64,000 bases of DNA, from positions 67,527 to 131,526 of the forward strand of contig PQAE01000002.1 of assembly GCA_003104935.1 (NCBI GenBank). The letters are read 5' to 3'. The notes under the pieces were generated by a model, which saw nothing but the letters and a program-made list of their open reading frames with translations, did not search any database and was not told the origin of the DNA. A program made the position numbers and the translations under genes. Numbering within the stretch: the first letter of the stretch is position 1; every line of letters starts with the position of its first letter. Of this stretch, positions 5,370-63,940 are shown one piece after another. This stretch comes from Parcubacteria group bacterium (GTDB taxonomy: Bacteria > Patescibacteriota > Patescibacteriia > UBA1558 > GWA2-36-10).

Positions 5370-5385
5370 ACAATCCGATTAAATT

Positions 5386-5933: not shown

Positions 5934-5943
5934 TTTATAGTTA

Positions 5944-8969: not shown

Positions 8970-10892
8970 TTAGTCGACCTGATTATCGCCGCCACTCGGA
9001 GTGCTGGTAGCATTGCCACTCACGATGATTGATTGATAGGCCCAATTATTATCTTCGTTGCTTTCCGCTAATTCATTGGCATTGTCAATCTTAATAGATA
9101 AATTCTTAGTGCCGGCAGTGGGCCAATATCCCATAAAAGAAATCTCAAAGGTCTGGCCAGGTAATAACGGACTGCCAGTAGTAATCGTAGGCAAAGATAA
9201 ATTGGTCTGTACAAAATCCCCAAAACCACGGTAATAATTTAGAATTCCCTTGGTATCCGACAAGACGGAATCCCCGCTATTTTTCCCTATAAATCTGACG
9301 ACTGTATTTGCCGTCGTGGTCGCCTGGGGTTGAGCAGGCTCACTGGACAGAGACAGGGCGCTGATATCAATATTATGAGTCGTGGGGCCTAAAACTAGGA
9401 TATCCATACTCATTTCGTTATTTTTTTCGTCCAATTCATCAATAAGACTACCCGGATCGGCCTGAATCGTAATTTTCTTCATTCCACCATTGCCAGTAAA
9501 CGATCCTTTTGCCCGAAAAATCACTGACTCATTCTGGTATAAGGGTCGAGTTTCCGATATTAGGCGGTCAGGAATAAAGTCTGTTTGCCAGACAAATCCG
9601 CTGGGTGTCGCGCTAGATTCTTTGAGAACTGGGCTCGCTTTCAGTGCTTTGCCTAAATTTTTTACGGTCGCGACGATGGTGATGGTGTCGCCGACACTAA
9701 CAGTTTTCGGGGGTAAAAGATATAAATTGTTAATAGTCAAATCCTCCTTAGTCGGTCCAGAACTATTTTTGTCACAGGTTAGGATGCGGTGTGTGTGGTC
9801 GTCAAATAAGGCCCAGACGCGACGAGTGGGGTTATTCCAATCGACATCATCCACGCCCGGTGTAAACCACGGCGACCAATGTCCAGCAAACCACTGAATT
9901 TGGTACTTTTGGATATCGCTATGTTGAGTCATGTCTAATCCTATATCAGTCCAGTGGGTAGTGCGGAAGGGTCCGCGAGTAACTTCTGTCGGATTTTCGC
10001 ACGGCAGTATTTGTGGCGGTTGTGGACCGATCGGAGTGCTGACCGAACACGCTCCCTGCTTATCGCCATGCGCTAGATGAGCCGCTAAAGCTCGGCTTGA
10101 GATCTCAATAGTGTGTTCAGACTCATTACTGGTTTGGGGCTTATGACACACCAGTACTTTCTGATTATCATTTACCGGATCAAACTGCGAAATATGTTTT
10201 TCTTCAATTTCCAAGTCATCCCCAGACTTATAAATAACCGGTATCTTTGACATCTGGACGACGATCTTTTTCTCCAGACCATTGATGCCATAGGCGCTCA
10301 CGTCCACTTTTCTTTTTTGCTGATTATCAATTAGATAGAAATTGCCGCTCTGCCCTTCTTCCACTAGAGTGCCGTCGGGCAATTTATCGCTACTGATGTT
10401 TTGGCCCCGAATATTATAGGCGCTGGCAAAAATACCCGGATCAATATCATCCACTTGCTTTGCCCAATCTTTACCAAAAAGCTCCGCCGCCGTAGTTTCA
10501 TCAGGAATATAAAATAATTCTCCGTCCTTTCCTACGGCATAGACTTTGGCGGTGTTTTGATTGGTTATTAACCTGGCCCCCGGTTGAAAAGTAACTGCCC
10601 CGCCCACGGGAATTTTATCAATTTCAGCTAAAGAGACTTCTTTAACCTGACTAAAATTATTGTACCAGGTGTTATAGGTTTTTTGGTCGGGAAAGACATA
10701 TTTTTTGCCGTCCGGCCCGACCTCATAAACCGGTGCTCCTTTAATCCCCTTGACTTTGAGCAAAGCGCCGTCTTCCACAACGGCGTTAGAGTTATTAACA
10801 GCCTGTGATCTGGCTGTAGTCATAAATATTCCCGCTACTGCCAAAAATACGGCCAAACCTCCAAATTTTAGTAAGTTTTTTGTTCTGAACAT
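8970..10892 (-). CDS. large secreted protein with C-terminal CARDB-like domains
   Basis: 640 aa with an N-terminal signal peptide. The C-terminal segments VSVGDTITIVATVKNLGKA and ...NANELAESNEDNNWAY match the CARDB pattern. Confidence 0.55.
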   Translation of the reverse strand: MFRTKNLLKFGGLAVFLAVAGIFMTTARSQAVNNSNAVVEDGALLKVKGIKGAPVYEVGPDGKKYVFPDQKTYNTWYNNFSQVKEVSLAEIDKIPVGGAVTFQPGARLITNQNTAKVYAVGKDGELFYIPDETTAAELFGKDWAKQVDDIDPGIFASAYNIRGQNISSDKLPDGTLVEEGQSGNFYLIDNQQKRKVDVSAYGINGLEKKIVVQMSKIPVIYKSGDDLEIEEKHISQFDPVNDNQKVLVCHKPQTSNESEHTIEISSRALAAHLAHGDKQGACSVSTPIGPQPPQILPCENPTEVTRGPFRTTHWTDIGLDMTQHSDIQKYQIQWFAGHWSPWFTPGVDDVDWNNPTRRVWALFDDHTHRILTCDKNSSGPTKEDLTINNLYLLPPKTVSVGDTITIVATVKNLGKALKASPVLKESSATPSGFVWQTDFIPDRLISETRPLYQNESVIFRAKGSFTGNGGMKKITIQADPGSLIDELDEKNNEMSMDILVLGPTTHNIDISALSLSSEPAQPQATTTANTVVRFIGKNSGDSVLSDTKGILNYYRGFGDFVQTNLSLPTITTGSPLLPGQTFEISFMGYWPTAGTKNLSIKIDNANELAESNEDNNWAYQSIIVSGNATSTPSGGDNQVD

Positions 10893-47978: not shown

Positions 47979-48157
47979 GTGAGCACCTCCATCAGGTTTT
48001 GAAGCCAGTCTGAATCAGGACTTAAGAAAATAACAAACAACACTAATTATTGCTCAAAATGAATACCCTGTCAATTAAAACCGATAATAAAAAACGACAT
48101 TTTTTGCCAAAAAAAACAAATAATGGTATATTCAAAATGGGTTTTTACCCGAAATAT

Positions 48158-48616
48158 ATGCCTATTTTAGCCAAAAACAAAGACCTCGGCTTTAGCTTCA
48201 AGATTCTGGACGAACTTGAAGCCGGTTTGGTTTTAAGCGGCCAGGAAGTCCGCTCGGCTAAACAGGGAAACATCAGTCTCAAAGGCGCCTTTGTTTCCAT
48301 AAAAAACGGCCGGGCCTGGCTGAAAAATATGCATATTACCGCCTATGATAAGGCTAGTCATGATCTGAAAAATTATAACCCCGACCGCGATCGGGAATTA
48401 CTTTTGCACCAGAAGGAACTGCAATATTTAGGGGCTAAAACCCAGGCTGAGGGCTTGACAATCATGCCCATTTCCGTGTATACTACGCGCAGACTTGTTA
48501 AGGTCAAAGTGGCCTTAGTCAAGGGAAAAAAGAAATTTGACAAGCGAGCGGACATCAAAAAACGAGAAATTGATCGTCGCATCGCCCAAAAGTTAAAAGG
48601 TAACTACCGAAGATAA
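48158..48616 (+). CDS. smpB: SsrA-binding protein
   Basis: LAKNK...ILDELEAGLVLSGQEVRS...GRAWLKNMHITAY...RELLLHQKE matches the SmpB signature. A TTGCCA-17-TATATT promoter at 48100-48128 argues for an internal start. Confidence 0.85.
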   Translation: MPILAKNKDLGFSFKILDELEAGLVLSGQEVRSAKQGNISLKGAFVSIKNGRAWLKNMHITAYDKASHDLKNYNPDRDRELLLHQKELQYLGAKTQAEGLTIMPISVYTTRRLVKVKVALVKGKKKFDKRADIKKREIDRRIAQKLKGNYRR

Positions 48617-48656
48617 TGCTTTATACTTGTTACTTTTTACTTTATACTTAGCTTAC

Positions 48657-49040
48657 GGGGATGTCTTTATTCGATGTCAGATGAAGTGATTTGTGGCAAG
48701 CGGAGTCTGCTATCTCCTTAAAAAGGCTAACAAAATAAGTGCCAAAAACTTATTTGCCAAAGTCCAGGGACTGTTCGCAGTTCCGAGACTGGCCCCAGTT
48801 TTAGCATAAATTTGCTGAAACCATCTCTAGCCAGGTTCGCCTGAGACGGGCTACGGGGTGTCATTTATCGGGATAGAAATAATTCGCGCCGACCGGATTA
48901 TTTCGAAACTAAGATCGGCTGGATGATCAGTGTTTTGCTAATTTTTAAGCTGATGATCGAGAACCAAAAAATTAACTAAGCTTGTAGAAATAAATCAGGA
49001 CATTTGTCAGACAGGGGTGTAATACCCCTCATCTCCACCA
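48657..49040 (+). ncRNA. ssrA: tmRNA (transfer-messenger RNA)
   Basis: 5' GGGGATG..TTCGATG and 3' AGGGG-TGTAATA-CCCCT CATCTCC A CCA. The acceptor stem has the G3-U70 Ala identity pair and a discriminator A. A candidate tag reading frame ends ...GCAGTTCCGAGACTGGCCCCAGTTTTAGCATAA (AVPRLAPVLA*). It is adjacent to smpB. The T-loop is atypical. Confidence 0.65.
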
Positions 49041-50829: not shown

Positions 50830-52161
50830 TTAGAGGACCTCTTGACCCAGAGAGGCCAGAGGAGAACGTACGGTGTCGTGAAAGGTAACAATCCCCACGA
50901 TGCGATTGCCGACCATCTTCTTGATGGCATAGGCCAGACCGCTGGATCGCCGGTCTACGCGAGACCGATCAATCTGGTCCAAATCGCCCGTGAAGACAAT
51001 CTTAGTATCCCTCCCCGCCCTAGTGATGATCGTTTTGATCATGTGGGGCGTCAAGTTTTGAGCCTCGTCGATAATCAAATAGACATGATGATAAGTCATG
51101 CCCCGAATGTAATCCAGGGGTTCCAGGATCAGACCGCCCCGGTTACGCATCTGATCGATCGTCTTTTGGTTGGACCGGCCGTCAACCTGCCCTAAGAAAA
51201 CTAGAGCTTGTTCGATCGGCCGAGCCCAGGGGCTCATCTTTGCTTCTTCATCACCCGGCAGAAAACCCATCCGATCGACATCTTCCAGATGAATCATAGG
51301 CCGCGTGATAACGATGCGTTTGTAGTGTTGCTTCTGCTCCAATCCGGCGGCCAAAGCCAGCAGAGTTTTACCGGTCCCGGCCACCCCTTCCAGGAAGACT
51401 AGTTGGACGTCACGATCCTTGAGTAGCCCCATGGCCGCGTGTTGGGTCCAGTTGGCCCCATTGCCGTTCATGGAAGCCGGCCGCAAACCGACCAGGTCAA
51501 TATCCGGGGGCACGATGTGGAAATTCCTTTCCTTACGGATAGCCACAAAGCGCTGGCCCCAGACACTGCTTTCCTGAACTTCCGGATCGTAGTCACTCTC
51601 GCAGATCACTGCTTCGTTGAGCGCGACACCCTCATGTTCCGCCGAAACAAAGGGGAATGTCTCGCCGTCTTCAGAAATCTGGTCGATCGAGACCCTGACT
51701 ACTTTCATCGGCTCATGGAAAAGAGGCCCTACCTGGTTATGGCGATAGTCGCCTACCTCCATATTATAGCCCAAATCCCTGGCCAACAGACGGAGAGCTG
51801 GGTCGCGAGAAACCAACTTGACGTTGTCGTATCTATGTTTTTCGCTGTTCAGAGATCGGGCGGCCGCTAGGACCTGGTGAGCTGGATCATTTCGGTTGAG
51901 ATATTCCAGACCGGAAAAGTCCGGATTCTTCACCATTTGCAGGCTACTGTCGTTTTTGGTTCGGAGAGCCTCCAATTTTTCGATGGCGGTCAGAGCATCC
52001 AGACTAAAGTCCGGCTTATTTCTGAGCTTACCCAGCTCAATGACGACTGACCAGGGTACGATCAGAGTATTCCGACCGTCTTCCAGCAAAACCTCGATGG
52101 CATCGGGGTCGTGGATCAGCACACTGCTATCCACGATGATCGCGTTTCTGGGCATCCACAC
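50830..52161 (-). CDS. PhoH-family ATPase with an N-terminal PIN domain (YlaK-like); GC-rich
   Basis: 443 aa with an N-terminal PIN-like region and the Walker A GVAGTGKTLLALAAG. About 55% GC. Confidence 0.8.
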   Translation of the reverse strand: MWMPRNAIIVDSSVLIHDPDAIEVLLEDGRNTLIVPWSVVIELGKLRNKPDFSLDALTAIEKLEALRTKNDSSLQMVKNPDFSGLEYLNRNDPAHQVLAAARSLNSEKHRYDNVKLVSRDPALRLLARDLGYNMEVGDYRHNQVGPLFHEPMKVVRVSIDQISEDGETFPFVSAEHEGVALNEAVICESDYDPEVQESSVWGQRFVAIRKERNFHIVPPDIDLVGLRPASMNGNGANWTQHAAMGLLKDRDVQLVFLEGVAGTGKTLLALAAGLEQKQHYKRIVITRPMIHLEDVDRMGFLPGDEEAKMSPWARPIEQALVFLGQVDGRSNQKTIDQMRNRGGLILEPLDYIRGMTYHHVYLIIDEAQNLTPHMIKTIITRAGRDTKIVFTGDLDQIDRSRVDRRSSGLAYAIKKMVGNRIVGIVTFHDTVRSPLASLGQEVL

Positions 52162-52324: not shown

Positions 52325-52699
52325 CTACTTTAAGGATCTTTTCACTTTTTGCACTACCTGTTCTAGTGTCCAATCCGTCTTAACCAGATAATCCAAAGTT
52401 TTGTCCTGGCTCAAAGTGGACTCCCGGGGCACGTTGGAGAGATTGGTTAAAATAATGACCTTAGCTTCTTGACCCCAGGAATCTTCCCGGAGCTTGGCCA
52501 GCATGGTCAGACCGTCCATCCGGGGCATGATGATATCCAGCAGAATTATATCCGGATGTTCGGCCAAAGCAATGTTTAGACCGTCTAAGCCATCGTGTGC
52601 CGTCAGTACCTTAAAGTCTTGAGAAAACTTATGCTTTAAAGCCATGAGTTGAGGAGCCTCGTCTTCCACAATTAAAATTTTATTCTTGGTCTTGGCCAT
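52325..52699 (-). CDS. single-domain response regulator (CheY-like receiver)
   Basis: 124 aa with ILIVEDE...DIILLDIIMPRMDG...KVIILT and no output domain. Confidence 0.8.
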   Translation of the reverse strand: MAKTKNKILIVEDEAPQLMALKHKFSQDFKVLTAHDGLDGLNIALAEHPDIILLDIIMPRMDGLTMLAKLREDSWGQEAKVIILTNLSNVPRESTLSQDKTLDYLVKTDWTLEQVVQKVKRSLK

Positions 52700-52706
52700 A
52701 TGAATA

Positions 52707-53090
52707 TTATAAAATACCCTTTATTTCGGAAATAATATCGTCTAACTTATAATTTGCTTTAGTAAAATATTTATTGACACCAAGATTTAAATAGGCCGAA
52801 ACTTTTTGCTCGCTGGCCGTATTGGATACTACAAAAATCGGAATATTTCTAAAGGAGCTGTTTTCTTCCTTGACTTTTACGACAAAATCCAAACCACTTT
52901 CCTTTCCCAGAAGATAGTGATCTACCCACAAACAAGCGATGTCTTTTATAGTTTCAAGGTATTGCCAAGCTTGACCTGCTGAGCGAGCAGTAACGGTATT
53001 AAAACCTTCGTGTTCAAATTTATCTTTGATGATGCGCTGTAGCGCCATCTCGTCTTCTAAAATCAAGATGCTTTTTTTGATATCGGACAT
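52707..53090 (-). CDS. single-domain response regulator (CheY-like receiver, divergent)
   Basis: 127 aa with ILILEDE...LWVDHYLLG...IFVVSN and no output domain. Confidence 0.7.
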   Translation of the reverse strand: MSDIKKSILILEDEMALQRIIKDKFEHEGFNTVTARSAGQAWQYLETIKDIACLWVDHYLLGKESGLDFVVKVKEENSSFRNIPIFVVSNTASEQKVSAYLNLGVNKYFTKANYKLDDIISEIKGIL

Positions 53091-53111
53091 AAAATAATAT
53101 AAATTAATTAT

Positions 53112-55835
53112 CTATTCTCCTTTATATTCTAAAGTCTTACTCCCCTCTTTTTTGGCCACCCCCTTGAGCGGTACGGTCACATAAAAAATACTGCCTTTGT
53201 TTTCGGCGGATTCAAACCAGACTTTGCCGCCAAACTGATCGATGATCGCCTTGACTATATAGAGACCCAGTCCGGTACCGTCTGTCTCTTTGACCCGGGC
53301 ATTATCCGCCCGAAACAATTTTTGAAATATCCGGGCCTGGTCGCTCTTGGGGATACCCATACCATTGTCCGAAACCGCGATCTGCGCCTCGCTACCGGTA
53401 TTTTTTATTTCAACTGTTATCTTTCCTTTTTCCGGGGTGTATTTGACGGCATTGCTGATATAATTTTGCAAAACTATGCGGGCCAGCTTGGGATCGAGAC
53501 TAATCAGGGGCAATTTCGGATCATATTTTTCCGTAATATTTAATTTTTTCTCCACGACCTTGGGCTTCATTTCATTGACCACACTTTTTGCCAAATCAGA
53601 AAGCTTGGTGGGTTCGGGATCAATGGCTAAGGTACCTAGTTCTATACGGGAAACATTGAGCAAGGCATTGACCAAAGCCACCATACGCTGGTTACCCTTA
53701 TAGATTTCTTCCATGTATTCTTTTTGGTTTTTATTGATTTTGCCGGCATCACCGGCCAACAACATCTCGGCATACCAATTAATGGCCGACAAAGGCGTCC
53801 GCAGTTGATGTGATGCCAAAGAAACAAACTCGGTTTTGGCTTTATCAATTGCTTTAAGCACGGTCACATCGCGGGCAATTACCGAGATAAACATTGGTTT
53901 TCCGCCCTTATCGTGAACCGGTGAAACTGTTAGAGTAACGTCAATAACGGTACCATCTTTTTTTAGACGTCTGGTATCAAAATTATCCAAACGAATATTC
54001 CGCTTAGCTTTAGCCAATATTTCATCTAGTTCCTTAAAAAGTTCTTTGGGTATGATAATGTCTTTGATGTCTCTGCCGATTGCCTCTTTAGCGCTATAGC
54101 CATAGATATTTTCCGCTCCTTTGTTCCAAGTAAGTATTTTTCCATTAAAATCTTTGGTAATAATAGCCTCACTGGTATCCCGCACAATACTAGCCAATCG
54201 CTCATTTACTTCGGCGATCTTTTTTTCACTAGTAATATCCTGCTCTATACCCACAAAAAATTTTACCCGTTTTTTTTCATCTAAAACTGGCGAAATACTG
54301 GCTAAGGCAATATAATGTTCTCCATTTTTTCGACGGTTGTTAATCTCCCCACTAAAAGTCCTCTTCTGAGACTTGATCGTCTGCCATAATTTTTTATAAA
54401 AGTCCTGTGACATTAATCCGCCCCACAAATCTTTGGCTCCGGCTTTTTTGCCAATTACGTCATTTGGTTTAAAACCGGTGATTCTCTCCACTGCTTTGTT
54501 AGCATAAAGAATCAGGCCGTCTTCATCTGTAATAACAATATGATCCGAAGCGTCTGCTACCGCTAATTTAAACTTTTCCAAATCTTTGGCCACTTCCACG
54601 TATTTAGCGGTACGCTCGCGCACTTTTTTCTCCAAGCCACGGTACAAGGTTTCCAATTTTTCGGTCATATCGGCGAAGGTCTGCACTAATATTCCGGTCT
54701 CCCCCTCCGAAGCTAATATTTTTTTATCAAAACTTACCCTTAAATTTCCTTTGGAAATATCCGCCGCAATTTTGGTCAGAGCGGTAATCGGGCGAGCTAT
54801 GTTACTGGCAAAAAATATCGCTACTAAAATCAAAAAAATAACAGCAATAAAAGTAATTATGATATCGATACGAGCCAGAGCAACCAACGGCGACATGGCC
54901 TCACTAAGATCAATTTTAGCCACCAAACCCCAATTACGCGAAGGTATAAACCTCCAGGCGGCTAAAACCTCGTGACCGGCATAATCAGTACTCAAACCTG
55001 CTCCCGACCGACCCTGCACCGCTTCCATAGCCGGCTTAGCCGCATTGTTTTCCGCTCCGGAGCTAAAGCTTAGAGCGGCGTTTGGATTATTACGCAAGGG
55101 GCTCAAAAACAGAACCCGGTTACTAAATCCTTCTTTAGCCAAACCATGGGGAGTATCCGTGGCACTATTAAATTTCCGCACTATAAATATTTCTCCGGTT
55201 TGCCCCAACTCGGAAAAAACTTGAATCTTTCTGTAGAGCTCTTTGGCGTTTATCTCAATCACCACGATGCCTATAAAATCACCGTTAAAGTCCTTGACCG
55301 GGGCCCCGACCAGAAAAACGACAGAGTGGTCATATTCCTCGTCGGCAAAAAGGTCAGAAATATAGATATTATCTCGAGCATTTTGAAAAGTCAGGTTTCC
55401 CGGATCAGGCAGGACGCCGTCTAAGAGCTCACTGCTATTCTTTTCGTCGGTGGTATAGACGATGCGGCCTTTAGGGTCAGTCAAAATAATTTCCATGACA
55501 TCGCTACGATTTTTATGCCAGGCAGATAGCTGTTGGTTGAGGATATCCTTGGCCTGCAAATATTCGGCACCGGACCGATCACCAGCTAAGCGGGTGATAA
55601 TGGGTAAATTAACCTTGATATTATAATAATCCTGCACGATAGCTATCTGCGACTGCAAATCTTGTAAATATTCCTTGGTAATATTTACTTTGGTGTCGGC
55701 GATAGTTTCCAGAGTGGCGGTGACCTTATTGGTCAAAACCTGGCGGGAATTAGAATAATTTATATACACTAAAAATATCAGCGGCACTATAGCCACTAAC
55801 AGATAGGATAAAATCAACCGGGTTCTGATTTTCAT
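53112..55835 (-). CDS. sensor histidine kinase (TM-Cache-like periplasmic domain-TM-HAMP-PAS/PAC repeats-HisKA-HATPase_c)
   Basis: 907 aa with two TM helices flanking a ~290-aa extracytoplasmic domain. H-box SHQLRTPLSAI, N-box NYISNAVKYT, G-boxes DNGMGIP and GTGLGLYIV. Confidence 0.85.
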   Translation of the reverse strand: MKIRTRLILSYLLVAIVPLIFLVYINYSNSRQVLTNKVTATLETIADTKVNITKEYLQDLQSQIAIVQDYYNIKVNLPIITRLAGDRSGAEYLQAKDILNQQLSAWHKNRSDVMEIILTDPKGRIVYTTDEKNSSELLDGVLPDPGNLTFQNARDNIYISDLFADEEYDHSVVFLVGAPVKDFNGDFIGIVVIEINAKELYRKIQVFSELGQTGEIFIVRKFNSATDTPHGLAKEGFSNRVLFLSPLRNNPNAALSFSSGAENNAAKPAMEAVQGRSGAGLSTDYAGHEVLAAWRFIPSRNWGLVAKIDLSEAMSPLVALARIDIIITFIAVIFLILVAIFFASNIARPITALTKIAADISKGNLRVSFDKKILASEGETGILVQTFADMTEKLETLYRGLEKKVRERTAKYVEVAKDLEKFKLAVADASDHIVITDEDGLILYANKAVERITGFKPNDVIGKKAGAKDLWGGLMSQDFYKKLWQTIKSQKRTFSGEINNRRKNGEHYIALASISPVLDEKKRVKFFVGIEQDITSEKKIAEVNERLASIVRDTSEAIITKDFNGKILTWNKGAENIYGYSAKEAIGRDIKDIIIPKELFKELDEILAKAKRNIRLDNFDTRRLKKDGTVIDVTLTVSPVHDKGGKPMFISVIARDVTVLKAIDKAKTEFVSLASHQLRTPLSAINWYAEMLLAGDAGKINKNQKEYMEEIYKGNQRMVALVNALLNVSRIELGTLAIDPEPTKLSDLAKSVVNEMKPKVVEKKLNITEKYDPKLPLISLDPKLARIVLQNYISNAVKYTPEKGKITVEIKNTGSEAQIAVSDNGMGIPKSDQARIFQKLFRADNARVKETDGTGLGLYIVKAIIDQFGGKVWFESAENKGSIFYVTVPLKGVAKKEGSKTLEYKGE

Positions 55836-55883
55836 AAAAAATATTTAGCTGAAATATTTTTGACGTTTACCACTATTAACTTC

Positions 55884-56927
55884 TTACGGAGTAACTACGC
55901 CCGGATTATTCTGATCAACTAAATAATTAATAAACGTGGGATCTACCATAGTGTCAGTATTAATCACTTCTACCTTATTACGTTCCTCGGCTACAAAGCG
56001 GCCAATCTTGTCCAGCTGGAGATAGAGCGATTGCGGATCATTTCCCGGAGCAAAGATCGTGGCGTTATCGGTGAGATCCAATAATTTTAATCCCTGAAGC
56101 TGACGCTCTATGTCGCTGGCGCTAATTTTAAATTCTTTGGCTAAGATAACGGCCGCCTGGTCAGGATTATTTTTAACAAAATTAAGGGCTTGAAAATAAG
56201 CCGTCACTATAGCCTGGACAGTTTGCGGGTTGTTTTCAACAAAATCTTGCCGGAAAGTCAAAATGTCGGTGATTAAACCAGGCGCATCTTTTGAAGAGGT
56301 TAAGATGTGCAGATCAGGATCGCTAGCTAATTCGGAAAGAAAAGGCTCGTGGGAAACAGCCACGTCGACCTCACCTCGCTTCAGCATCTGGGCGGCTTCA
56401 TCGGGATTGGCCTCGACCGCGGTGATGTCGGACAGGGTCAGATCAGCTTGTTGCAGAGCCCAACTAATAAAAAACTCTTCCAGCGTCCCTTTTTCGAAAG
56501 CTACTAGTTTGCCGGACAGATCTGTCAAAGCAACGATTTTTTTACTGGCAACTATAGCATCAGCGCCGGCTGAATAATCGATGGCCAGCACGATATTTTG
56601 CTTAAACCCGTCTAGCGATTCATTTACCGCCTCCAGACTGATATTAGCCCGACCCTGCATCTTACCGGCTTGATAATCACCGGATAACTGACTGAGGTCT
56701 TTGTAGAGTTTAACGTCTACATTGAGCCCCTGGTCACGGAAAAACCCCTGGCTCTCTGCCACGTAAAGAGCGACGTAGCCCGGCCAGGTTTCGGTACCGA
56801 TAGTAATAGGTCCTTCAAATAGCCGACTTTTAGTGGCGTTTTTATTTTGTCTAAAATAAACAAATCCGCCCGTTATCAGCGCTATGGCGATAATTATTAT
56901 AATTACTGGTAATAATTTATCACGCAT
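55884..56927 (-). CDS. membrane-anchored periplasmic substrate-binding protein (NMT1/SsuA-like ABC-type SBP fold)
   Basis: 347 aa with an N-terminal TM helix. The size and composition fit the type 2 periplasmic binding fold. It sits immediately upstream of the kinase on the same strand. Confidence 0.5.
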   Translation of the reverse strand: MRDKLLPVIIIIIAIALITGGFVYFRQNKNATKSRLFEGPITIGTETWPGYVALYVAESQGFFRDQGLNVDVKLYKDLSQLSGDYQAGKMQGRANISLEAVNESLDGFKQNIVLAIDYSAGADAIVASKKIVALTDLSGKLVAFEKGTLEEFFISWALQQADLTLSDITAVEANPDEAAQMLKRGEVDVAVSHEPFLSELASDPDLHILTSSKDAPGLITDILTFRQDFVENNPQTVQAIVTAYFQALNFVKNNPDQAAVILAKEFKISASDIERQLQGLKLLDLTDNATIFAPGNDPQSLYLQLDKIGRFVAEERNKVEVINTDTMVDPTFINYLVDQNNPGVVTP

Positions 56928-56929
56928 AG

Positions 56930-57373
56930 TTATCTAGTAGCGCTGATGGTCGCTCCTTGTTCGGCGCTGGGTGCCAGGACCGTTACCCGGTTATTGGCTG
57001 ATTTTTGTATCTTATAGCCGGTACCGTTGGTGGAAGAGCCGGTCGGATCCAACGGAATAGAAGTAATATATTTTTCATTGAGTGTCAGCACCGACAAGTC
57101 AATCAAACCCACACAAGAAGCACTGGTTTTACAAACCTCTACCTGGGCATTTGTAATCGATGCCGGTATTGAGCCGTTATCTATAGAATATTGATAAACG
57201 GCATTGAGAATAGTATTGACATCGGCCCGGCGCTGAGCATTACGCGTCTCCCCTAATTGCTTGGTGGGGTTAATAGCTAAGATAACGATACCGGCCAAAA
57301 TAGAAATGGCCGCTACTACTAAGAGGATCTCAATCAAAGTGAAACCCTTTTTTCCCTGAAGTAATTTTCTCAT
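56930..57373 (-). CDS. type IV pilin (prepilin with class III signal)
   Basis: MRKLLQGKKG|FTLIEILLVVAAISILAGIV... has the canonical G/FTLIE cleavage and methylation site. Confidence 0.8.
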   Translation of the reverse strand: MRKLLQGKKGFTLIEILLVVAAISILAGIVILAINPTKQLGETRNAQRRADVNTILNAVYQYSIDNGSIPASITNAQVEVCKTSASCVGLIDLSVLTLNEKYITSIPLDPTGSSTNGTGYKIQKSANNRVTVLAPSAEQGATISATR

Positions 57374-57411
57374 AAAATAATGTTAAAAATTATTTAAGTA
57401 TTTGTTAAATT

Positions 57412-57852
57412 TTATCTAGTGACGCTGATAGTGATCCCTAGTTCGGCCATGACCGCAGCCACCATCACCCGGCCGCCGGCGGTCTTCATGACCACATAAC
57501 AGGTGCCATTAGGGTTACAGGTAGCACCGGGATCATGGGGGATAGCGGTTAGATATTTTTCATTTGTAGTCAGCACCGAGAGGTCGGCCAGCCCAGCACA
57601 AGTGCCGCCGGTCTTACATATTTCCAACAGCCCGGTAGTGATAGAGCTCGGTAGCGCACCATTGTTATCAATAGCATATTGATAAACCGCGTTGAGGATC
57701 GTATTAACATCGGCCCGGCGCTGAGCATTACGCGTTTCTCCCAGTTGTTTACTGGGATTAATAGCCAAAATAACGATACCGGCTAAAATAGCGATAGTAG
57801 CCACGACTAGTAGGACTTCGATCAAAGTAAACCCCTTTTTATTACAAATAAA
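57412..57852 (-). CDS. type IV pilin paralog (start uncertain)
   Basis: ...NKFICNKKG|FTLIEVLLVVATIAILAGIV... The track ORF extends to 57924 and overlaps the upstream pilin by 47 bp. A 10-aa leader would need an ATA start at 57850-57852. Confidence 0.65.
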   Translation of the reverse strand, partial: FICNKKGFTLIEVLLVVATIAILAGIVILAINPSKQLGETRNAQRRADVNTILNAVYQYAIDNNGALPSSITTGLLEICKTGGTCAGLADLSVLTTNEKYLTAIPHDPGATCNPNGTCYVVMKTAGGRVMVAAVMAELGITISVTR

Positions 57853-57877
57853 TTTATTTATTAAAAATATTAAAATT

Positions 57878-58345
57878 TTACCTGGTAACGCTGATAGTGG
57901 CTCCTTGCTCGGCTGAGGGAGCACAAACTGTTACTCGGCCATTGGCGCTCTTGGACACATAATAACCAGTGCCGTCAGTTGATGAAACTGTAGGATCAAT
58001 CGGCAGAGAAGTTAAGTATTTTTCGTTAGTCGTTAAAACAGTCATCGCCACCCCGGCCGAACAGGTGCCGGAAGCCGCGCCTTTACAAACCTGATTAGCC
58101 GCTACCAAAGCACAGGAACCAGTCGGTATAGTGGGCAAAGTACCGTTATTATCTATAGAGTACTGATAGATGGCGTTTAAAATAGTATTGACATCGGCGC
58201 GGCGCTGAGCATTTCGCGTTTCTCCCAGCTGTTTACTGGGATTGATAGCAATAATGACAATGCCGGCCAAAATACCAATCGCCGCTACGACCAATAGGAT
58301 TTCCAAAAGAGTGAATCCGGATCGTTTTTTAAAAAATTTAGGCAT
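57878..58345 (-). CDS. type IV pilin paralog
   Basis: MPKFFKKRSG|FTLLEILLVVAAIGILAGIV... The N-terminal half is about 80% identical to the two paralogs and the C-terminal half is variable. Confidence 0.8.
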   Translation of the reverse strand: MPKFFKKRSGFTLLEILLVVAAIGILAGIVIIAINPSKQLGETRNAQRRADVNTILNAIYQYSIDNNGTLPTIPTGSCALVAANQVCKGAASGTCSAGVAMTVLTTNEKYLTSLPIDPTVSSTDGTGYYVSKSANGRVTVCAPSAEQGATISVTR

Positions 58346-58374
58346 AATTTTTTTAATTAATTATTTATGTAAAT

Positions 58375-58797
58375 TTATAACTCCCCCGCTTCCTGCCAGG
58401 AAACCACCTGGATCAAGGGGGTGATTTGGTTAATAATAACTTTAGACTTACGGATTATCAGTCCGACCGTGCTGGAAGCTACGATGGTGCGATTAGATCC
58501 ACCCTGGCTAGTCACGGTATAAGTGCAAGTTCCCTGGCCAAGCGACAGATTACCGCTACCGGTATACGCGGTGCTACTGCGAATCTGTTGCAGACCTTCC
58601 TCGGCGCAAGCATTGACCAGAGCCTTGGCCTGATTTGACTGTTCATCGGCAAAACTAGTGCGGGAAGATCCTAAACCCAATAATATCATCGAAGTGACTA
58701 TGGCTATGCCCACGGCGCTCACTACCAAGACACTTAGTAAAGTCACATAGCCGTTACGATTAATATTATACCATATTTTGTACCTATAACGTAGCAT
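58375..58797 (-). CDS. minor pilin-like protein (PilX-like?)
   Basis: 140 aa with a hydrophobic N-terminal helix (NGYVTLLSVLVVSAVGIAIV) and no clean GFTLIE site. Confidence 0.4.
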   Translation of the reverse strand: MLRYRYKIWYNINRNGYVTLLSVLVVSAVGIAIVTSMILLGLGSSRTSFADEQSNQAKALVNACAEEGLQQIRSSTAYTGSGNLSLGQGTCTYTVTSQGGSNRTIVASSTVGLIIRKSKVIINQITPLIQVVSWQEAGEL

Positions 58798-58800
58798 TTT

Positions 58801-59316
58801 TTAAGGTTGCCTCAAGGTTGCTGAGGTTTTAAAAGTTTTCTGATAATTATATTCCTGGCGTCCACTGGTATTAACATAAGTTAGGGTAAAAGTTACGGCA
58901 ATAACTCCGGGCGTGCCAGCTCGCGACAGGTTCTGAAAGCTCAGTCCGCTGATCTGCACTCTAGAATTGGTCAAAAATATTGCAACGGCGGATCCCTCCT
59001 TGATACGCAAAGCAGTGCCACTAAGATCAAATACTGTCGGGTTATTAACTACGACATAAGTGTTTAGTGACAAAGAGGCGGTACTAGCCCCCAGAGTCGG
59101 GGAATTTATGATCGCACTATTTCGTATCGTTTGGGTAATTGTCTGCATCGCTTGCAGGCCCTGTTGCTCCACTTCGGCGATAACCTGGTTTTTTACCCGC
59201 GCCTCCAAGAGAAAAGAAAGAAATATGGAAATAAAAAATAAAAATAGAGCGCTGATACTCACGTAAAGGAGTAGTTCTAGCAAAGTAAATCCTGATTGTT
59301 TGTTTTTATATATCAT
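58801..59316 (-). CDS. pseudopilin/minor pilin (prepilin-type N-terminal domain)
   Basis: MIYKNKQSG|FTLLELLLYVSI... Confidence 0.7.
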   Translation of the reverse strand: MIYKNKQSGFTLLELLLYVSISALFLFFISIFLSFLLEARVKNQVIAEVEQQGLQAMQTITQTIRNSAIINSPTLGASTASLSLNTYVVVNNPTVFDLSGTALRIKEGSAVAIFLTNSRVQISGLSFQNLSRAGTPGVIAVTFTLTYVNTSGRQEYNYQKTFKTSATLRQP

Positions 59317-60704
59317 TGGGGTGCCAAAACTATAAATTCCGCGGCATTGGCATCTCCCACGGCAAATACGCGATCACTTACCGAATCATAAACCACGCCT
59401 TCTAAAGTATCAGCCGCATCATAAAAACCAATTAGTGCCGGGGTAGCCGGCGTAGAAATATCAATCGCCACAAACTCACTTGCCGCGTCGCTGTTAACCA
59501 TGAACACCGAAGAATTGGAACTACCTAAAGACAAGTCATTGGCGGCGCCGGCAACCGGAGAAATCAAGCCGGTCAAACTGGGAATGGCCGGAGCCGTAAC
59601 ATCTATCACATTGACGCTACCGCTGGCCCGCCCAGCTATTATAGTTTGGTTAAAACCGGTAATAGATATGATGTCGCTAGTGCCAGCCAGATTTAGACTG
59701 CCGCTTAGAACCAATGCCGCCGGATTAGAAATATTTACCACCTGTAAATCCTGAGTGTCGTCCGATGAGCCGATAAAAGCATAATTGCCCAGAACCATTA
59801 GCTCGTATGCCCCGCCATTTAACACCAGGCCGCCGGCCAAGACTGGCGCCGCCGGATTAGCCACATTAACTACCGCCAAATCATTGCCGCCGTTTAGACC
59901 CAGATAGGCATAATTACCGACGACATACACCCCCCGAGCATCCTCATTACCGGCATCATTGTAGGCGCTCACCTGACTGGGTGTAGCTGGATTGGATATA
60001 TTAATAATTTGCAGTTCTTCAGTATTACTTGTATTGGTAATATAGGCATAATTTCCGGAAACAAATATATTGGTCGGTGTGCCGGTTAAAATCAACGATC
60101 CCACTATCGTGGGGCTAGCGGGCACGCTAATATCAACTACAATAAAACTGGGACTGGCATTATTTCTCACAATATAAGCATAATTACCCTGTACTTGGAT
60201 TTTGACGGCATTTTGAGCACCGGTAAGATCCAAGCTGGCGGCCAAAACAGGTGTAGCCCAATTATTGCCGGCACTGGCTATCCAATTTGTCAGGCGGCTA
60301 ACCAGAGTGACTGAGCCGGTACGCTGGGGATTTTGTTGCCAAGTAACCTGGGAGATAACGGATTTTCTCTTGCTATCCGCGGAAGCGATGTTTACTTGCC
60401 TGGTAAAAATATCACTCACATCCTGAATACCGGAAAAAGTCCATTGATTACCCGTCACGGCTAGGCCATAATTACCATCGGCCAGATTAGCATAACCGGC
60501 GTCACGGATACTGCGCACGGCTTCCAGACCCTCCTCGGCCAGTAATAATGCCCGCGCTCGATTACCGGCCAACGCGGTCGCTTCCTGACCATAGAGAAAA
60601 GCCCCGACCAGCGCCGTAATCAAAAGACCAAAAATCGCGCCGGCTAAAAGTACTTCTACCAGCGAAAATCCTAGTTTATTAATAGTCAACCATGCCTTTA
60701 GCAT
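59313..60704 (-). CDS. pilin-like N-terminus fused to an LVIVD-repeat beta-propeller domain
   Basis: N-terminus KLG|FSLVEVLLAGAIFGLLITAL. Downstream there are at least five GNYAY(I/V/L)... repeats with (V/I)(V/I)(D/N)(I/V)S(N/V)P, the LVIVD-repeat consensus. The start is set at the internal Met. Confidence 0.6.
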   Translation of the reverse strand: MLKAWLTINKLGFSLVEVLLAGAIFGLLITALVGAFLYGQEATALAGNRARALLLAEEGLEAVRSIRDAGYANLADGNYGLAVTGNQWTFSGIQDVSDIFTRQVNIASADSKRKSVISQVTWQQNPQRTGSVTLVSRLTNWIASAGNNWATPVLAASLDLTGAQNAVKIQVQGNYAYIVRNNASPSFIVVDISVPASPTIVGSLILTGTPTNIFVSGNYAYITNTSNTEELQIINISNPATPSQVSAYNDAGNEDARGVYVVGNYAYLGLNGGNDLAVVNVANPAAPVLAGGLVLNGGAYELMVLGNYAFIGSSDDTQDLQVVNISNPAALVLSGSLNLAGTSDIISITGFNQTIIAGRASGSVNVIDVTAPAIPSLTGLISPVAGAANDLSLGSSNSSVFMVNSDAASEFVAIDISTPATPALIGFYDAADTLEGVVYDSVSDRVFAVGDANAAEFIVLAPQ

Positions 60705-61113
60705 TGATAACAATATTACGCGTTTCATTAATATTGGAGGTAAAAATAATAGCCCCAGTAGTCTGAGGCAAGCCACTAAACTTGGCAAAAACTACTTCCC
60801 CTACTCCCGAGGGCGTGATGCTGGTAGGAACAGCGAAAAATTCATCATAAGTCGCGTCGCGTCCGGCATAACTCAAACCTTTGAAGAGGGTGATGCTACC
60901 CGACTGAACGACCACGCCCCAAGAGGCGTCGTTGTCTCCGGCCTGGGCCAAAAACTGCGCTCGGCGCAAAGACTGCACCGCCGTCACACCGGCGATATCC
61001 AAATCATTGCGTACCTGAAAAGACTGTAAAACAGGGAGAGAAATAGCGGCGATAATAGCTATGGCCGCTAGTGATAACAAAATTTCGATAAAAGTAAAGC
61101 CCCTCTGCTCCAT
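60679..61113 (-). CDS. pseudopilin/minor pilin (prepilin-type N-terminal domain)
   Basis: MEQRG|FTFIEILLSLAAIAIIAAI... Confidence 0.7.
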   Translation of the reverse strand: MEQRGFTFIEILLSLAAIAIIAAISLPVLQSFQVRNDLDIAGVTAVQSLRRAQFLAQAGDNDASWGVVVQSGSITLFKGLSYAGRDATYDEFFAVPTSITPSGVGEVVFAKFSGLPQTTGAIIFTSNINETRNIVINAKGMVDY

Positions 61114-61119
61114 ATTTTT

Positions 61120-62229
61120 TTACGAAGTTTGCAAACCGCCGATCAGACTGTAAATGGGAAGAATAACCGCCAAAGCTACCGTTACTACTCCCAACCAGAC
61201 TATGACCAGTAAAATCGGCTCCAGTATTACCGCCAAATTTTTTGTGGTTAGCTCGGTCTTACCTTCATAGACCCGGCTGATAGATAGCAGGGTGTCCGGC
61301 AGAGTGCCTGATTTTTCTCCGGTGATGACCAACTGCTGGATCGGTGTCGGCAAAAGGCGTTTTATATTTTTATAATTGGCGAAACTTTTTTGAAAAGAAT
61401 TTCCGTCTTCGATATTGCGCACCAAAAATTCATAAAACCTGCGATAAGGCGGAAAAGAAGTGGCCTGAGACAAAGAGCTGATCGCCTGGGTGACGGGCAG
61501 ACCGGCCTGTAGCAGAGTACCCAGTAGAAAACCAAAACGGGAAATTTCTACTTCCTGAACCAGCCGCCCGACTCCGGGTACGATAAAAAGAAAACCCTGG
61601 CCCAATGCCTTGGTTCGGGGAAAATAAAAAATAAAATATATCAGCAGGGCTAAGACAACGATGGTGATAGGCACCACCACGGTTCCGTGTTGCCCCAGAT
61701 ATTTACCCAGGCCGATGATTATCTGGGTAATAAGAGGCAGTTTGACCCGCAACTGGGAAAAAACTACCGCTAGTTTTGGCAAAATAAACCAGGCAATACC
61801 AATACCTATAATGACGGTCAGCGCCAGCACAAAAACCGGATACATCATGGCCGAACGGATCTTGGCCTGAAAATTACGGGATTTTTCCTGCTCCAGACTG
61901 ACCACCCGCAGATTTTCCGCCAGATTACCAGAGTCTTCCCCTACTCTGATGATGGAAATGGTATACTCGGGGAAAAGGCGGGCCGCTTCCAGAGAGCTCC
62001 ACAGCGAGGAACCGGCCTCGATATTTTCTCTAATCTCACCGAGTACTAGGTGCATACGCTGGGAACGCATATCGGTCTGCAAAGCTTCTAGGGCATCTAA
62101 AATATTCATGCCCGATCCCACCAGCAAGCTGAGATTTTCTACAAAGTATTGCTTTTCTTCGCCCACTCTCCAATTTGATAACGTCGACCAAAAAGAAGAA
62201 CGAACTATTTGTTTATTTGGTTTTGGCAT
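61120..62229 (-). CDS. pilC: type IV pilus assembly platform protein (GspF/PilC family)
   Basis: 369 aa with three TM helices and duplicated GspF-like cytoplasmic domains. Confidence 0.85.
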   Translation of the reverse strand: MPKPNKQIVRSSFWSTLSNWRVGEEKQYFVENLSLLVGSGMNILDALEALQTDMRSQRMHLVLGEIRENIEAGSSLWSSLEAARLFPEYTISIIRVGEDSGNLAENLRVVSLEQEKSRNFQAKIRSAMMYPVFVLALTVIIGIGIAWFILPKLAVVFSQLRVKLPLITQIIIGLGKYLGQHGTVVVPITIVVLALLIYFIFYFPRTKALGQGFLFIVPGVGRLVQEVEISRFGFLLGTLLQAGLPVTQAISSLSQATSFPPYRRFYEFLVRNIEDGNSFQKSFANYKNIKRLLPTPIQQLVITGEKSGTLPDTLLSISRVYEGKTELTTKNLAVILEPILLVIVWLGVVTVALAVILPIYSLIGGLQTS

Positions 62230-63940
62230 AAGTATTGGCTCTGACCGGGGGCATGGCGACGCGCAACAGCTCTTCCAAAGTAGTTACTCCTGTCTTGACC
62301 TTGTCGATGCCGTCCTCAAAAAGAGACCGCGAACCCTGACTGCTGGCCAACTGCCATATTTCCTGAGCCGATGGATTTTTCAAAATCAGGTCTTTAAGCT
62401 CCTTGCTAAAATAAATCATTTCAAAGATGGCGGTCCGCCCCTTAAAGCCGGTGTGATTACAGTTATCGCAACCCTTTCCCCGATATAAAGTCATAACTCC
62501 TTTAGGTAAAAAATCATCGGCGGTGGGTAATATATTCTTGGTTTGAACACGGATTTCCTGATAACTATAACGGCATTTTTCACAAATTACCCTGACCAGA
62601 CGCTGAGCCACTACCAGTTCCAAAGTGGATGATAAGAGAAATGGCTCCACACCCATATCTAGGAGCCGCGGCGTGACCGTGGCGGCATCATTGGCGTGAA
62701 AAGTAGAAAGCAATAGGTGGCCGGTCAAAGCGGCGTTAACGGATATTTCCGCAGTTTCATGATCCCGGATTTCCCCCACTAGGATGATGTCCGGATCCTG
62801 TCGAACGATAGAACGCAATCCTTTGGCAAAAGTGAGATTGGTTTGGGAATTAACCTGAATCTGATTGATGCCCTGGATTTTGAACTCGACCGGATCTTCA
62901 ATAGTGGTCACATTTATCTCCGGATGGTTTAATACTTTTAATAAAGTATAGAGTGTGGTGGTCTTGCCGGAGCCGGTCGGTCCGGCAACGATGATCATAC
63001 CAAAAGGTTTTTTGCCGGCCTTGAGAAAACGATCCTGATCGCCGACCGATAAACCGATGTCGCTTAAACTATAATTGCGCACATACTGGGAAAGGATGCG
63101 GATCACCGCTTTTTCGCCGTCAACTACCGGAGTGATGGAAACGCGCATATCAACTGTGCGCCCTTCTTTCAAATAACGAATAGCACCATCCTGGGCGGAG
63201 AAATGCTCATCGATGCGCAGTCGGGATTTGACCTTGATCAAATTTAAAATATTCTGATAATTATCTTTAGGAATCCGGCCGACTTCATTCATCAGTCCGT
63301 CTACCCGGAAACGAATGACCACTTCTTTTTCCTGCGGCTCGAAGTGCACGTCCGAGGCATGGTTAATTAGAGCATCGTCAAAAATCTCGTCGATTATCTC
63401 CGGAGCAATGCGGGTGCTTTTTTGTATGATCTTGATAAAACGAGTCTCCAGGTTTTTTCGGTAATGAACAAAGTTGGCCTGGATATCTTCCGGCAAAGAA
63501 TAGCTGATTTGAACTTTTTTGTTTCTGAAAATTTCGCCTAAAACTGCGGCTAAACCGGCTTGGCTGGGATCATCGGTCGCGACCGTGATCAAATTTTTAT
63601 CCTCGGAAAATAGAATCACCCGGCATTTTTTGGCTAGTTCCTCGGGTATTTTTAAAACCTGTTCTCTGCTGGGCAGATAAGTATTAAGATCAGCATAGGG
63701 AACTTTATAATACTCGGCTAAAGCTTGTCCTAATAGATCATCGCTGATCAGTCCGGCTGAAATCAAATAATCTTTCAGGGGAGAATTATTTTTTTTAGCA
63801 TAATCCAAAGCCTGAGTCATGTCCACCGGACTGACATAGTTGGCTTCGACTAATAATCGGGAGAGGTCGGGTTTATTTTTTGTGGGACCGGTAGGAAGTG
63901 ATGAATTTTGTTTTTTTTGTGTTTTTGTTTGCGCAGACAT
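62213..63940 (-). CDS. pilB: type IV pilus assembly ATPase (GspE/PilB family)
   Basis: 575 aa with an N-terminal GspE_N-like domain, Walker A VAGPTGSGKTTTLYT, Asp/His boxes and a tetracysteine motif (CEKC...CDNC). Confidence 0.9.
   Translation of the reverse strand: MSAQTKTQKKQNSSLPTGPTKNKPDLSRLLVEANYVSPVDMTQALDYAKKNNSPLKDYLISAGLISDDLLGQALAEYYKVPYADLNTYLPSREQVLKIPEELAKKCRVILFSEDKNLITVATDDPSQAGLAAVLGEIFRNKKVQISYSLPEDIQANFVHYRKNLETRFIKIIQKSTRIAPEIIDEIFDDALINHASDVHFEPQEKEVVIRFRVDGLMNEVGRIPKDNYQNILNLIKVKSRLRIDEHFSAQDGAIRYLKEGRTVDMRVSITPVVDGEKAVIRILSQYVRNYSLSDIGLSVGDQDRFLKAGKKPFGMIIVAGPTGSGKTTTLYTLLKVLNHPEINVTTIEDPVEFKIQGINQIQVNSQTNLTFAKGLRSIVRQDPDIILVGEIRDHETAEISVNAALTGHLLLSTFHANDAATVTPRLLDMGVEPFLLSSTLELVVAQRLVRVICEKCRYSYQEIRVQTKNILPTADDFLPKGVMTLYRGKGCDNCNHTGFKGRTAIFEMIYFSKELKDLILKNPSAQEIWQLASSQGSRSLFEDGIDKVKTGVTTLEELLRVAMPPVRANTYAKTK

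Follow-up and report, generated by a model that had tools for sequence, protein, structure and literature searches.

Modular minor pilin and adjoining two-component module of a conserved type IV filament cluster in a Parcubacteria genome

What kind of filament is encoded at one end of a 64,000-nucleotide (nt) stretch of Parcubacteria DNA, and by what might it be controlled? Patescibacteria account for a large share of bacterial diversity and need their pili for attachment and motility; all cultivated members are, to our knowledge, attached to host cells. The regulation of their pilus activity was stated as an open question, and their pilin genes were reported to be poorly conserved (PMC12206443). 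The stretch examined here (contig PQAE01000002.1, positions 67,527–131,526; its full length is termed the window) carries at 52325–63940 an array of 13 genes, all in one direction on the minus strand. They encode a PilB-type ATPase, a PilC platform protein, seven prepilin-type proteins, of which one is fused to an LVIVD-repeat β-propeller, a membrane-anchored substrate-binding protein (SBP), a sensor histidine kinase (HK), and two stand-alone receivers (RR). A previous interpretation made from the DNA letters, termed the sequence-only reading, had listed these genes as a type IV pilus locus with six or seven prepilin-type genes following PilB and PilC. Every listed gene was found in place with its stated domains, Pfam and direct reading settled the prepilin-type genes at seven, and the domains bore out a type IV filament. 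In this array the organism possesses its version of a type IV filament cluster that is conserved among Patescibacteria, and we are highly confident that a conserved cluster with a modular minor pilin is present. The pilus locus and the fusion are of known kinds; what is new is the signalling module recurring beside the cluster across the phylum, together with an orthologous group of receivers encoded next to pilB.

The filament genes and their conservation

The window ends 60 nt upstream of pilB. A 14.8-kb Logan contig (L001), independently assembled from run SRR5381729, reaches 1.6 kb past this edge and showed no mismatch to the window across 11,788 shared nt. Two further receiver genes, spaced 5 and 6 nt apart, lie on it directly before pilB. 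The whole array thus reads RR-RR-PilB-PilC-four minor pilins-three major pilins-SBP-HK-RR-RR, with 15 genes on L001 and 13 of them inside the window. Gene spacing throughout 52325–63940 is −26 to +52 nt, and these short gaps suggest an operon. The genes are listed below in the order of transcription, with lengths in amino acids (aa) and the values of the Pfam matches in brackets.

L001 883–1616, just past window position 64000: two stand-alone receivers of 118 and 123 aa, directly upstream of pilB
62213–63940, minus: PilB-type assembly ATPase, 575 aa; T2SSE (8e-119) and N-terminal MshEN (1.4e-9)
61120–62229, minus: PilC/GspF platform protein; T2SSF (5e-47) in two stretches
60679–61113, minus: minor pilin 1, 144 aa; GFTFIE motif, N_methyl (4e-5), weak GspH, ComGE and ComGF matches
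59313–60704, minus: modular minor pilin 2, 463 aa; GFSLVE prepilin leader, LVIVD (3.6e-33)
58801–59316, minus: minor pilin 3, 171 aa; GFTLLE motif, N_methyl (1e-5)
58375–58797, minus: minor pilin 4, 140 aa, atypical; NG/YVTLL without Glu5 by direct reading, no Pfam match
57878–58345, minus: major-pilin paralog 1, 155 aa; N_methyl, GspG-like (1.4e-10, below cut-off), paralog alignment
57412–57924 (or from about 57846), minus: major-pilin paralog 2, start uncertain; GFTLIE motif
56930–57373, minus: major-pilin paralog 3, 147 aa; N_methyl, paralog alignment
55884–56927, minus: membrane-anchored SsuA/TauA-type SBP; NMT1 (1e-18), N-terminal transmembrane anchor
53112–55835, minus: sensor histidine kinase, 907 aa; transmembrane segment, Cache-like extracytoplasmic domain, transmembrane segment, HAMP, two PAS, HisKA, HATPase_c
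52707–53090, minus: stand-alone receiver, 127 aa; Response_reg only (4e-12)
52325–52699, minus: stand-alone receiver, 124 aa, last gene of the array; Response_reg only (4e-18)

The T2SSE match of PilB scored 397 bits against a Pfam cut-off of 24.9. Its scores against the curated NCBIfam models were all below the cut-offs, being 486 bits for TIGR02538 (PilB; cut-off 675.65), 469 for GspE (630.25), and 254 for ComGA (300). A PilB/GspE-family ATPase, a PilC/GspF platform, and subunits with class III signal peptides hence occur together here, which is the composition of a type IV filament. That of a type IVa pilus was not found at the locus, as PilT and PilM/N/O are absent and PilB stays below the equivalog cut-off. 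The MshEN-type domain spans approximately residues 28–160 of PilB, where the NCBIfam motif for binding cyclic di-GMP reached 29.3 bits (cut-off 38), and an MshEN domain was found in every related PilB that was looked up. For PilC, an alternative start at 62166 gives 348 aa, as in the gene call on L001. Some relatives have a PilC of approximately 480–490 aa with a C-terminal SH3_3 domain (L083 8174–9613; L085 7067–8548; L086 7046–8527), which the window PilC lacks.

In agreement with the sequence-only reading, Pfam detected no PilT, PilM/N/O or prepilin peptidase (PilD) elsewhere among the window open reading frames (ORFs) of at least 110 aa. For the two relatives with Pfam-labelled flanks, the 10 kb around the cluster likewise contained neither PilT nor a prepilin peptidase (PilD, peptidase A24). 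The lack of PilD is an absence at the locus and not from the organism. The remainder of the window consists of housekeeping genes, and a phmmer search of these 52 kb gave no further T2SSE, receiver, kinase or pilin ORF.

Five of the seven prepilin-type genes passed the N_methyl cut-off of Pfam. By operon position, minor pilin 1 resembles GspH/FimT and minor pilin 3 resembles GspJ/PilW; the latter also gave weak NCBIfam matches to a prepilin-peptidase-dependent protein, ComGD, and ComGF. Subunits of the GspK/PilX type lack Glu5. Minor pilin 4, whose position is kept in the relatives, resembles GspK/PilX/ComGG by position and motif, and gave a single faint match to ComGG (E = 0.059). Because of the gene order, the presence of Glu5 in three subunits and not in the fourth, and these weak matches, the four minor pilins may correspond to the GspH/I/J/K or FimU/PilV/PilW/PilX priming set.

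The three major-pilin paralogs had been described as approximately 80% identical in their N-terminal halves and variable in their C-terminal halves. Alignment gave 87–88% identity over the first 60 mature residues and 51–63% over the remainder, which upholds this description. Approximately 25 synonymous codon differences were counted per pair in the conserved N-terminal parts, so that recent gene conversion was ruled out and the paralogs are old duplicates under purifying selection. The middle paralog was also considered as a decaying pseudogene; this is not supported, since its N-terminal part showed 25 synonymous versus 8 non-synonymous codon differences, a pattern of purifying selection. 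No ATG, GTG or TTG lies near its GFTLIE motif, where ATT or ATA near 57846 is a possible start. With its sole canonical start, a GTG at 57924, the leader would be 30 aa long and the gene would overlap paralog 1 by 47 nt.

Conservation was examined by a scan of one genome per species, which gave 311 relatives of the fusion. The best 80 of these 311 were taken with their flanks, and the ORFs of the 80 loci were searched with the window proteins (phmmer). The order PilB-PilC-minor pilin 1-fusion-minor pilin 3-minor pilin 4 was kept in 50 of the 52 evaluable loci. The minor pilins are followed by one major pilin in 36 loci and by two in 11, with none detected in 5; three copies occur in this locus only, among the loci compared. 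A second, shorter T2SSE-family ORF adjoins the cluster in one relative only (L056). The labels of the records in this set include Pacei-, Moranii-, Uhr-, Falkow-, Magasanik-, Woese-, Dojka-, WWE3, Gracili-, and Saccharibacteria. Those co-assembly bins that bear the labels Gammaproteobacteria or Bdellovibrionales are taken to be mislabelled. The genes flanking the cluster differ between genomes, so that the conservation belongs to the cluster and not to its chromosomal neighbourhood. For one minor-pilin set, this cluster is the opposite of the poor pilin conservation mentioned above.

The propeller-bearing minor pilin

The second minor pilin had been read as a fusion of approximately 460 aa between a pilin N-terminus and an LVIVD propeller, and it was confirmed as a single gene of 463 aa. 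A GspI/PilV-like pilin module at approximately residues 1–140 is followed by a seven-bladed LVIVD β-propeller at approximately residues 150–463. Residues 11–128 gave weak, sub-threshold NCBIfam matches to GspI/XpsI/PilV. This similarity and the operon position fit the earlier suggestion of a bulky tip or minor pilin. A prepilin motif and an extra non-pilus domain are present in one polypeptide, as defined for modular pilins.

A database search gave 1,434 homologues of approximately the same length that share the prepilin motif. Among the best 120 of these 1,434, nearly all are 442–503 aa long and 44–55% identical to the query, with a few longer; those with a taxon label belong to Patescibacteria lineages or are named simply "bacterium". 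Identity within the family across candidate phyla is 34–55%. The longer members include P0002 (792 aa) and P0004 (762 aa). An assembly artefact, in which the fusion would resolve into two genes, was excluded by the single ORF found identically in two independent assemblies and by the more than 1,400 homologues of the same length. In an alignment of 20 family members, Glu+5 is invariant, Gly−1 and Phe+1 are nearly so, and conservation over the first 140 residues equals that of the propeller.

Structure prediction, which had been proposed with the sequence-only reading, was performed by AlphaFold2 using the family alignment. The model has a mean predicted local distance difference test (pLDDT) score of 79, and comprises an N-terminal helix (residues 15–68), a small sheet of low confidence (80–139), and 28 strands (153–461, pLDDT > 90) that make up seven four-stranded blades. 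The pilin helix and sheet are joined to this confidently predicted propeller by a short low-confidence linker.

The same operon position was compared among the relatives found by the reverse look-up of receivers described in the next section. It is occupied by a pilin with LVIVD, fn3, or LVIVD plus LamG, or by one without an extra module, which is then 197 or 140 aa long. Examples at the second-minor-pilin position are as follows.

L085 8978–10378: pilin with doubled LVIVD, 735 aa
L086 8989–10372: pilin with fn3, 623 aa
L087 7751–8344: plain small pilin, no extra module
L089 7727–8372: pilin with LVIVD and Laminin_G_3, 1,732 aa

Swappable modules at one operon position fit what is expected of a displayed, exchangeable effector module. 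If the correspondence of the minor pilins with the priming set holds, the propeller on the second subunit would be displayed at the filament tip, where by analogy it probably acts as an adhesin or ligand binder.

We take the database entry IPR013211 to be the LVIVD repeat. The definition of modular pilins is due to Raynaud et al. (2021, PNAS), with PilB-vWA and PilC-lectin of S. sanguinis as examples (PMC8179133). Dataset S1 of that study lists IPR012902 with IPR013211 repeats in several copy-number variants of 7–8 proteins each, and the text of the study mentions an 860-aa Falkowbacteria protein with 12 copies of IPR013211, described as "of unknown function" (PMC8179133). The pilin-LVIVD architecture was hence already catalogued in 2021 and is not new. 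It was listed there without genomic context, whereas here it appears as a large family (more than 1,400 clusters) fixed as the second of four minor pilins, with a predicted seven-bladed propeller fold and with fn3 or LamG modules as substitutes at the same position.

A propeller-bearing minor pilin, PilX2 of the thin type IV pilus T4P-2 of TM7x (Nanosynbacter lyticus), is required for host binding (ISME J 2025; PMC12206443). Compared by description, PilX2 is similarly a Patescibacteria minor pilin with a C-terminal seven-bladed β-propeller, encoded in the order FimT-like, PilV, PilW, PilX, PilA. It differs in having RCC1 repeats, no PilD-type signal peptide, and the fourth (PilX) position, whereas the fusion described here has an LVIVD-type propeller on the second (PilV/GspI-like) pilin and a clear G/F/E5 motif. 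Furthermore, pilB2 and pilC2 of TM7x are at a separate locus with pilM/N/O, whereas pilB and pilC head the minor-pilin cluster in the present array. Response regulators and two-component systems are not mentioned in the TM7x pilus paper (PMC12206443). A β-propeller is also presented at the tip by the four core minor pilins (FimU-PilVWX) in the case of PilY1/PilC. PilY1 is not a pilin and belongs to another propeller family (IPR008707), whereas the present propeller is joined covalently to a minor pilin. Neither Pfam, which returned LVIVD only, nor the top 50 structures of a Foldseek search gave a PilY1-type match (Neisseria_PilC/IPR008707) for the fusion.

The sensor kinase, the adjacent binding protein, and the pilB-adjacent receiver

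A membrane-anchored SBP and a Cache-HAMP-PAS-HisKA kinase had been placed downstream of the pilins on the same strand, where both were indeed detected. The Pfam matches of the kinase to two PAS domains, HisKA, and HATPase_c were strong, and those to HAMP (24.7 bits) and dCache_1 (39.6 bits, E = 5.6e-10) were just below the cut-offs. Its sensor domain had no match to PDB sequences up to E = 1. The Cache assignment was made because of the sub-threshold dCache_1 match and the strong dCache_1 matches in homologous kinases beside orthologous SBPs. Among the loci with long flanks, 24 of 31 have a kinase beside the cluster; the kinase gene follows the pilins in 16 of these and precedes the receiver in the other 8.

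The SBP gene starts 2 nt past the stop codon of the last pilin. Its product scored 118 bits against SsuA_fam, below the NCBIfam cut-off, and matched SsuA and TauA in PDB. No ABC permease or ATPase gene was found near it, making it an orphan. Approximately 110 close homologues (40–55% identity) were obtained, and the order SBP, kinase, receiver without transporter genes nearby was observed in all four relatives examined. In the nearest relative of the cluster, two SBP genes immediately precede those of a HAMP-PAS-HisKA kinase and a receiver, on the opposite side of the pilus genes. For three further homologues, the SBP is followed by a dCache/HAMP(/PAS)-HisKA kinase and then by a single-domain receiver, again without an ABC permease or ATPase; a pilin or T2SSE ATPase gene is also present in two of these three neighbourhoods and absent in the other. 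This conserved order without transporter genes suggests that the SBP is best read as a co-sensor of the adjacent kinase, which is probable. The SBP-kinase-receiver cassette forms a mobile signalling unit that frequently, though not invariably, accompanies pilus genes. The arrangement in the window and in the four relatives is the adjacency known for binding-protein co-sensors, similar to LuxP-LuxQ and TorT-TorS, in which the gene of an orphan periplasmic-type binding protein lies beside that of a sensor kinase without transporter genes. The present SBP, a putative co-sensor, differs from them in being of the SsuA/TauA (NMT1) class and membrane-anchored. On L091 (1–3621), such a cassette adjoins CheB, a CheA-like Hpt-HATPase-CheW protein, CheD, and a receiver together with a prepilin gene.

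The two downstream receivers had been called CheY-like and devoid of DNA-binding output, which was corroborated by Pfam as each matches Response_reg only. The same holds for the upstream pair, so that the array encodes four Response_reg-only proteins of 118–127 aa. The acidic pocket, phospho-acceptor Asp, Ser/Thr and Lys are all intact, and no DNA-binding or other output domain was detected in any of the four by Pfam. One downstream receiver gave sub-threshold matches to RssB-type adaptors. On L001, the gene of a small DUF378 membrane protein precedes the upstream receivers, and DUF378 also occurs near the cluster in L020, L041, and L058.

Of the 58 loci with enough upstream sequence, 41 have a single-domain receiver gene immediately ahead of pilB and on its strand, at a median gap of approximately 11 nt. 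These pilB-adjacent receivers share a mean identity of 49% between genomes, versus approximately 33% to all other receiver classes, including those of the same locus, and the two downstream receivers are less conserved. By sequence comparison, the pilB-adjacent receiver is a separate orthologous group found across the phylum. Conserved motifs are EDE, LLDLxMP, SNLsQxED, and KSdTp, the phosphorylation residues are kept, and Q87, D90, S106, and T108 are specific to the group. Positions 87–108 would constitute the α4-β5-α5 face, by which CheY-like proteins contact their targets. A reverse test was performed with five orthologues (56–61% identity), which were picked for long contigs only. All five were encoded directly before an MshEN-T2SSE PilB, followed by PilC and a minor pilin.

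The regulation of the pilus by the kinase and receivers, as proposed in the sequence-only reading, therefore stands in part. Its genomic link to the pilus is conserved across Patescibacteria, and the key receiver is upstream of pilB, past the window edge. The proposed control of the PilG/PilH type was not sustained as membership of the Chp family, since the kinase is a classical HisKA kinase and CheA, CheW, and chemoreceptors (MCP) are lacking; no Hpt, CheW or MCP domain was detected by Pfam in the locus or window. The four receivers are single-domain CheY-like proteins as in Pil-Chp, and the signalling part is analogous to PilG/PilH or EmvR without being a Chp system. Such output-less CheY-like proteins, namely PilG/PilH (Pil-Chp), EmvR of Xanthomonas oryzae, and PixG/PixH of cyanobacteria, control type IV pili by protein contact; EmvR does so by binding PilB, whose ATPase activity it lowers. 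Such receivers either take their input from CheA-type kinases (Chp, Tax1) or are orphans encoded away from pilB, whereas here a transmembrane HisKA kinase lies within the pilus cluster and a receiver gene is fixed directly upstream of pilB. A two-component system beside pilin and pilB-pilC genes is also found in PilS-PilR. PilR, however, is an NtrC-type, sigma-54-dependent DNA-binding activator, whereas the receivers described here carry no AAA+, helix-turn-helix or other domain, so that this is not a PilS-PilR system. Our search, which did not cover all journals, found no paper linking two-component systems to pili in Patescibacteria or the candidate phyla radiation.

Possible control of the pilus motor and its alternatives

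The best explanation overall, which by analogy with known systems we regard as reasonably probable, is a tip-displayed modular adhesin combined with a ligand-gated phosphorelay that acts on the pilus motor via single-domain receivers. PilB and PilC would assemble a filament of GspG-like major pilin, represented by three diverged paralogs and primed by the four minor pilins as a GspH/I/J/K (FimU/PilV/PilW/PilX) tip set. The LVIVD propeller on the second minor pilin would give the pilus tip a built-in means of adhesion or ligand binding, in the place that PilY1 occupies in other systems. The membrane kinase is probably gated by the adjacent orphan SsuA-like SBP and by its cytoplasmic PAS domains; the Cache-like domain and SBP would receive external input, and the two PAS domains internal input. 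The kinase would then phosphorylate the single-domain receivers. The one encoded before pilB may bind PilB (or PilC) and change motor activity, and the others may serve as antagonists or phosphate sinks. That the relay controls the pilus in some way is somewhat more probable than its opposite, and a direct contact between receiver and PilB, drawn from analogy, is proposed tentatively. It is doubtful whether the pilB-adjacent receiver is a dedicated PilB regulator across Patescibacteria, forming with a kinase gated by a Cache domain or SBP the host-sensing attachment switch of these episymbionts, by which the extension of a pilus tipped with an exchangeable adhesin would answer small molecules from potential hosts.

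Several observations weigh against this explanation. By the criteria used, 17 of the 58 loci have no upstream receiver, and 7 of the 31 loci have no kinase within the flanks; loci lacking one or the other include L063 and L070, labelled Saccharibacteria/Saccharimonadales. This indicates that the relay is common and not obligatory. The loci were picked via homology to the fusion and are phylogenetically related, so that their shared gene order may partly reflect inheritance and not selection. The assignment of the minor pilins to H/I/J/K was made from gene order and sub-threshold matches, the pilin module of the AlphaFold2 model has a pLDDT of 40–63, and Foldseek against PDB gave generic WD40-type propellers only (top 50), with no clue to a ligand. 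Phosphotransfer, receiver–PilB contact, tip location, and adhesion are all inferred from sequence and analogy. Scans of the region gave terminator-like sites no more often than expected by chance and promoter-like sites marginally more often, so that the operon structure follows from gene spacing alone. PilT, PilM/N/O, and PilD were not seen at the locus, so that a filament that does not retract, or is not a surface pilus, is conceivable.

One alternative is a short pseudopilus for DNA uptake (Com-like) or protein export (type II secretion-like), with the two-component system controlling competence or secretion. In its arrangement of ATPase, platform, and four minor pilins, the cluster resembles the ComG and Gsp operons, GspG is the best match of the major pilins (1.4e-10), the minor pilins have weak ComGD/E/F/G and GspH/I matches, and neither PilT nor PilM/N/O occurs in the window or near the cluster in relatives. 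All these NCBIfam scores are below the cut-offs, however, and for PilB the type IVa PilB model gives a slightly better score than GspE, with ComGA far behind. A propeller of 320 residues or a module of up to 1,700 aa is better suited to surface display than to a periplasm-like pseudopilus, and a propeller-bearing minor pilin serves host binding in TM7x (PMC12206443). A pseudopilus, which would be compatible with the signalling part of the best explanation, is hence considered unlikely.

The signalling genes may alternatively set the amount of pilus components, through expression or stability, via a partner, which could be a transcription factor, a protein of the anti-sigma type or an adaptor for a protease; in a variant, the kinase would sense membrane pilin levels as PilS does. 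Such control would be in line with PilS-PilR adjoining pilA in proteobacteria, with the position of the kinase gene after the pilin genes in 16 of the 24 kinase-bearing loci, and with the RssB-type matches of one downstream receiver. We consider it quite unlikely, as all receivers of the locus lack an output domain, DNA-binding or otherwise, the one that is conserved best has its fixed place beside pilB and not beside the pilin genes, and no partner gene is conserved in the cluster. It is also conceivable that the two-component genes are a mobile cassette that regulates something else and is merely carried along. The SBP-kinase-receiver cassette does occur away from pilus genes (L090), and the position and sensor architecture of the kinase vary widely between loci. 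Against this, the receiver in front of pilB is a distinct orthologous group that keeps its gap of approximately 11 nt across very divergent lineages and was recovered in all five reverse look-ups, the kinase remains adjacent even when it switches side, and the genes flanking the cluster are not conserved. A proximity without functional meaning is thus highly improbable. As candidates for work in newly tractable members of the group, the cluster offers the conserved pilB-adjacent receiver, a sensor kinase with variable inputs, and a putative tip subunit whose module is exchangeable. Should the relay turn out to govern the motor, chemotaxis-like control of pili would have a compact alternative that is independent of a CheA-type kinase.

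Other features of the window were also recorded. A gap of 163 nt separates the last receiver (52325–52699) from the gene of a PIN-PhoH fusion protein (50830–52161, minus; Pfam), directly downstream of the cluster, and a sigma-70-like promoter motif TTGACA-17-TAAAGT lies between them at 52276–52248. A tmRNA gene (Rfam, 124.6 bits) directly follows a 188-aa ORF at 48050–49040 (plus), and this ORF is SmpB-like by eye from its sequence. At 7273–7369 (minus), a tRNA of 97 nt scored 54.9 bits in Rfam, with its anticodon not named by ARAGORN; it may be a long-arm or interrupted tRNA. Two tandem membrane proteins with seven transmembrane segments are encoded at 3492–4859 (minus), showing a sub-threshold likeness to the N-terminal region of 7TM histidine kinases without a kinase domain. 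Their genes partly overlap the stretch of lowest GC in the window (4001–6000, GC 0.315). A 640-aa CARDB-domain protein (8970–10892, minus) and a 384-aa ORF with faint RHS-repeat matches (5944–7098, minus) are possibly surface proteins unrelated to the pilus cluster.

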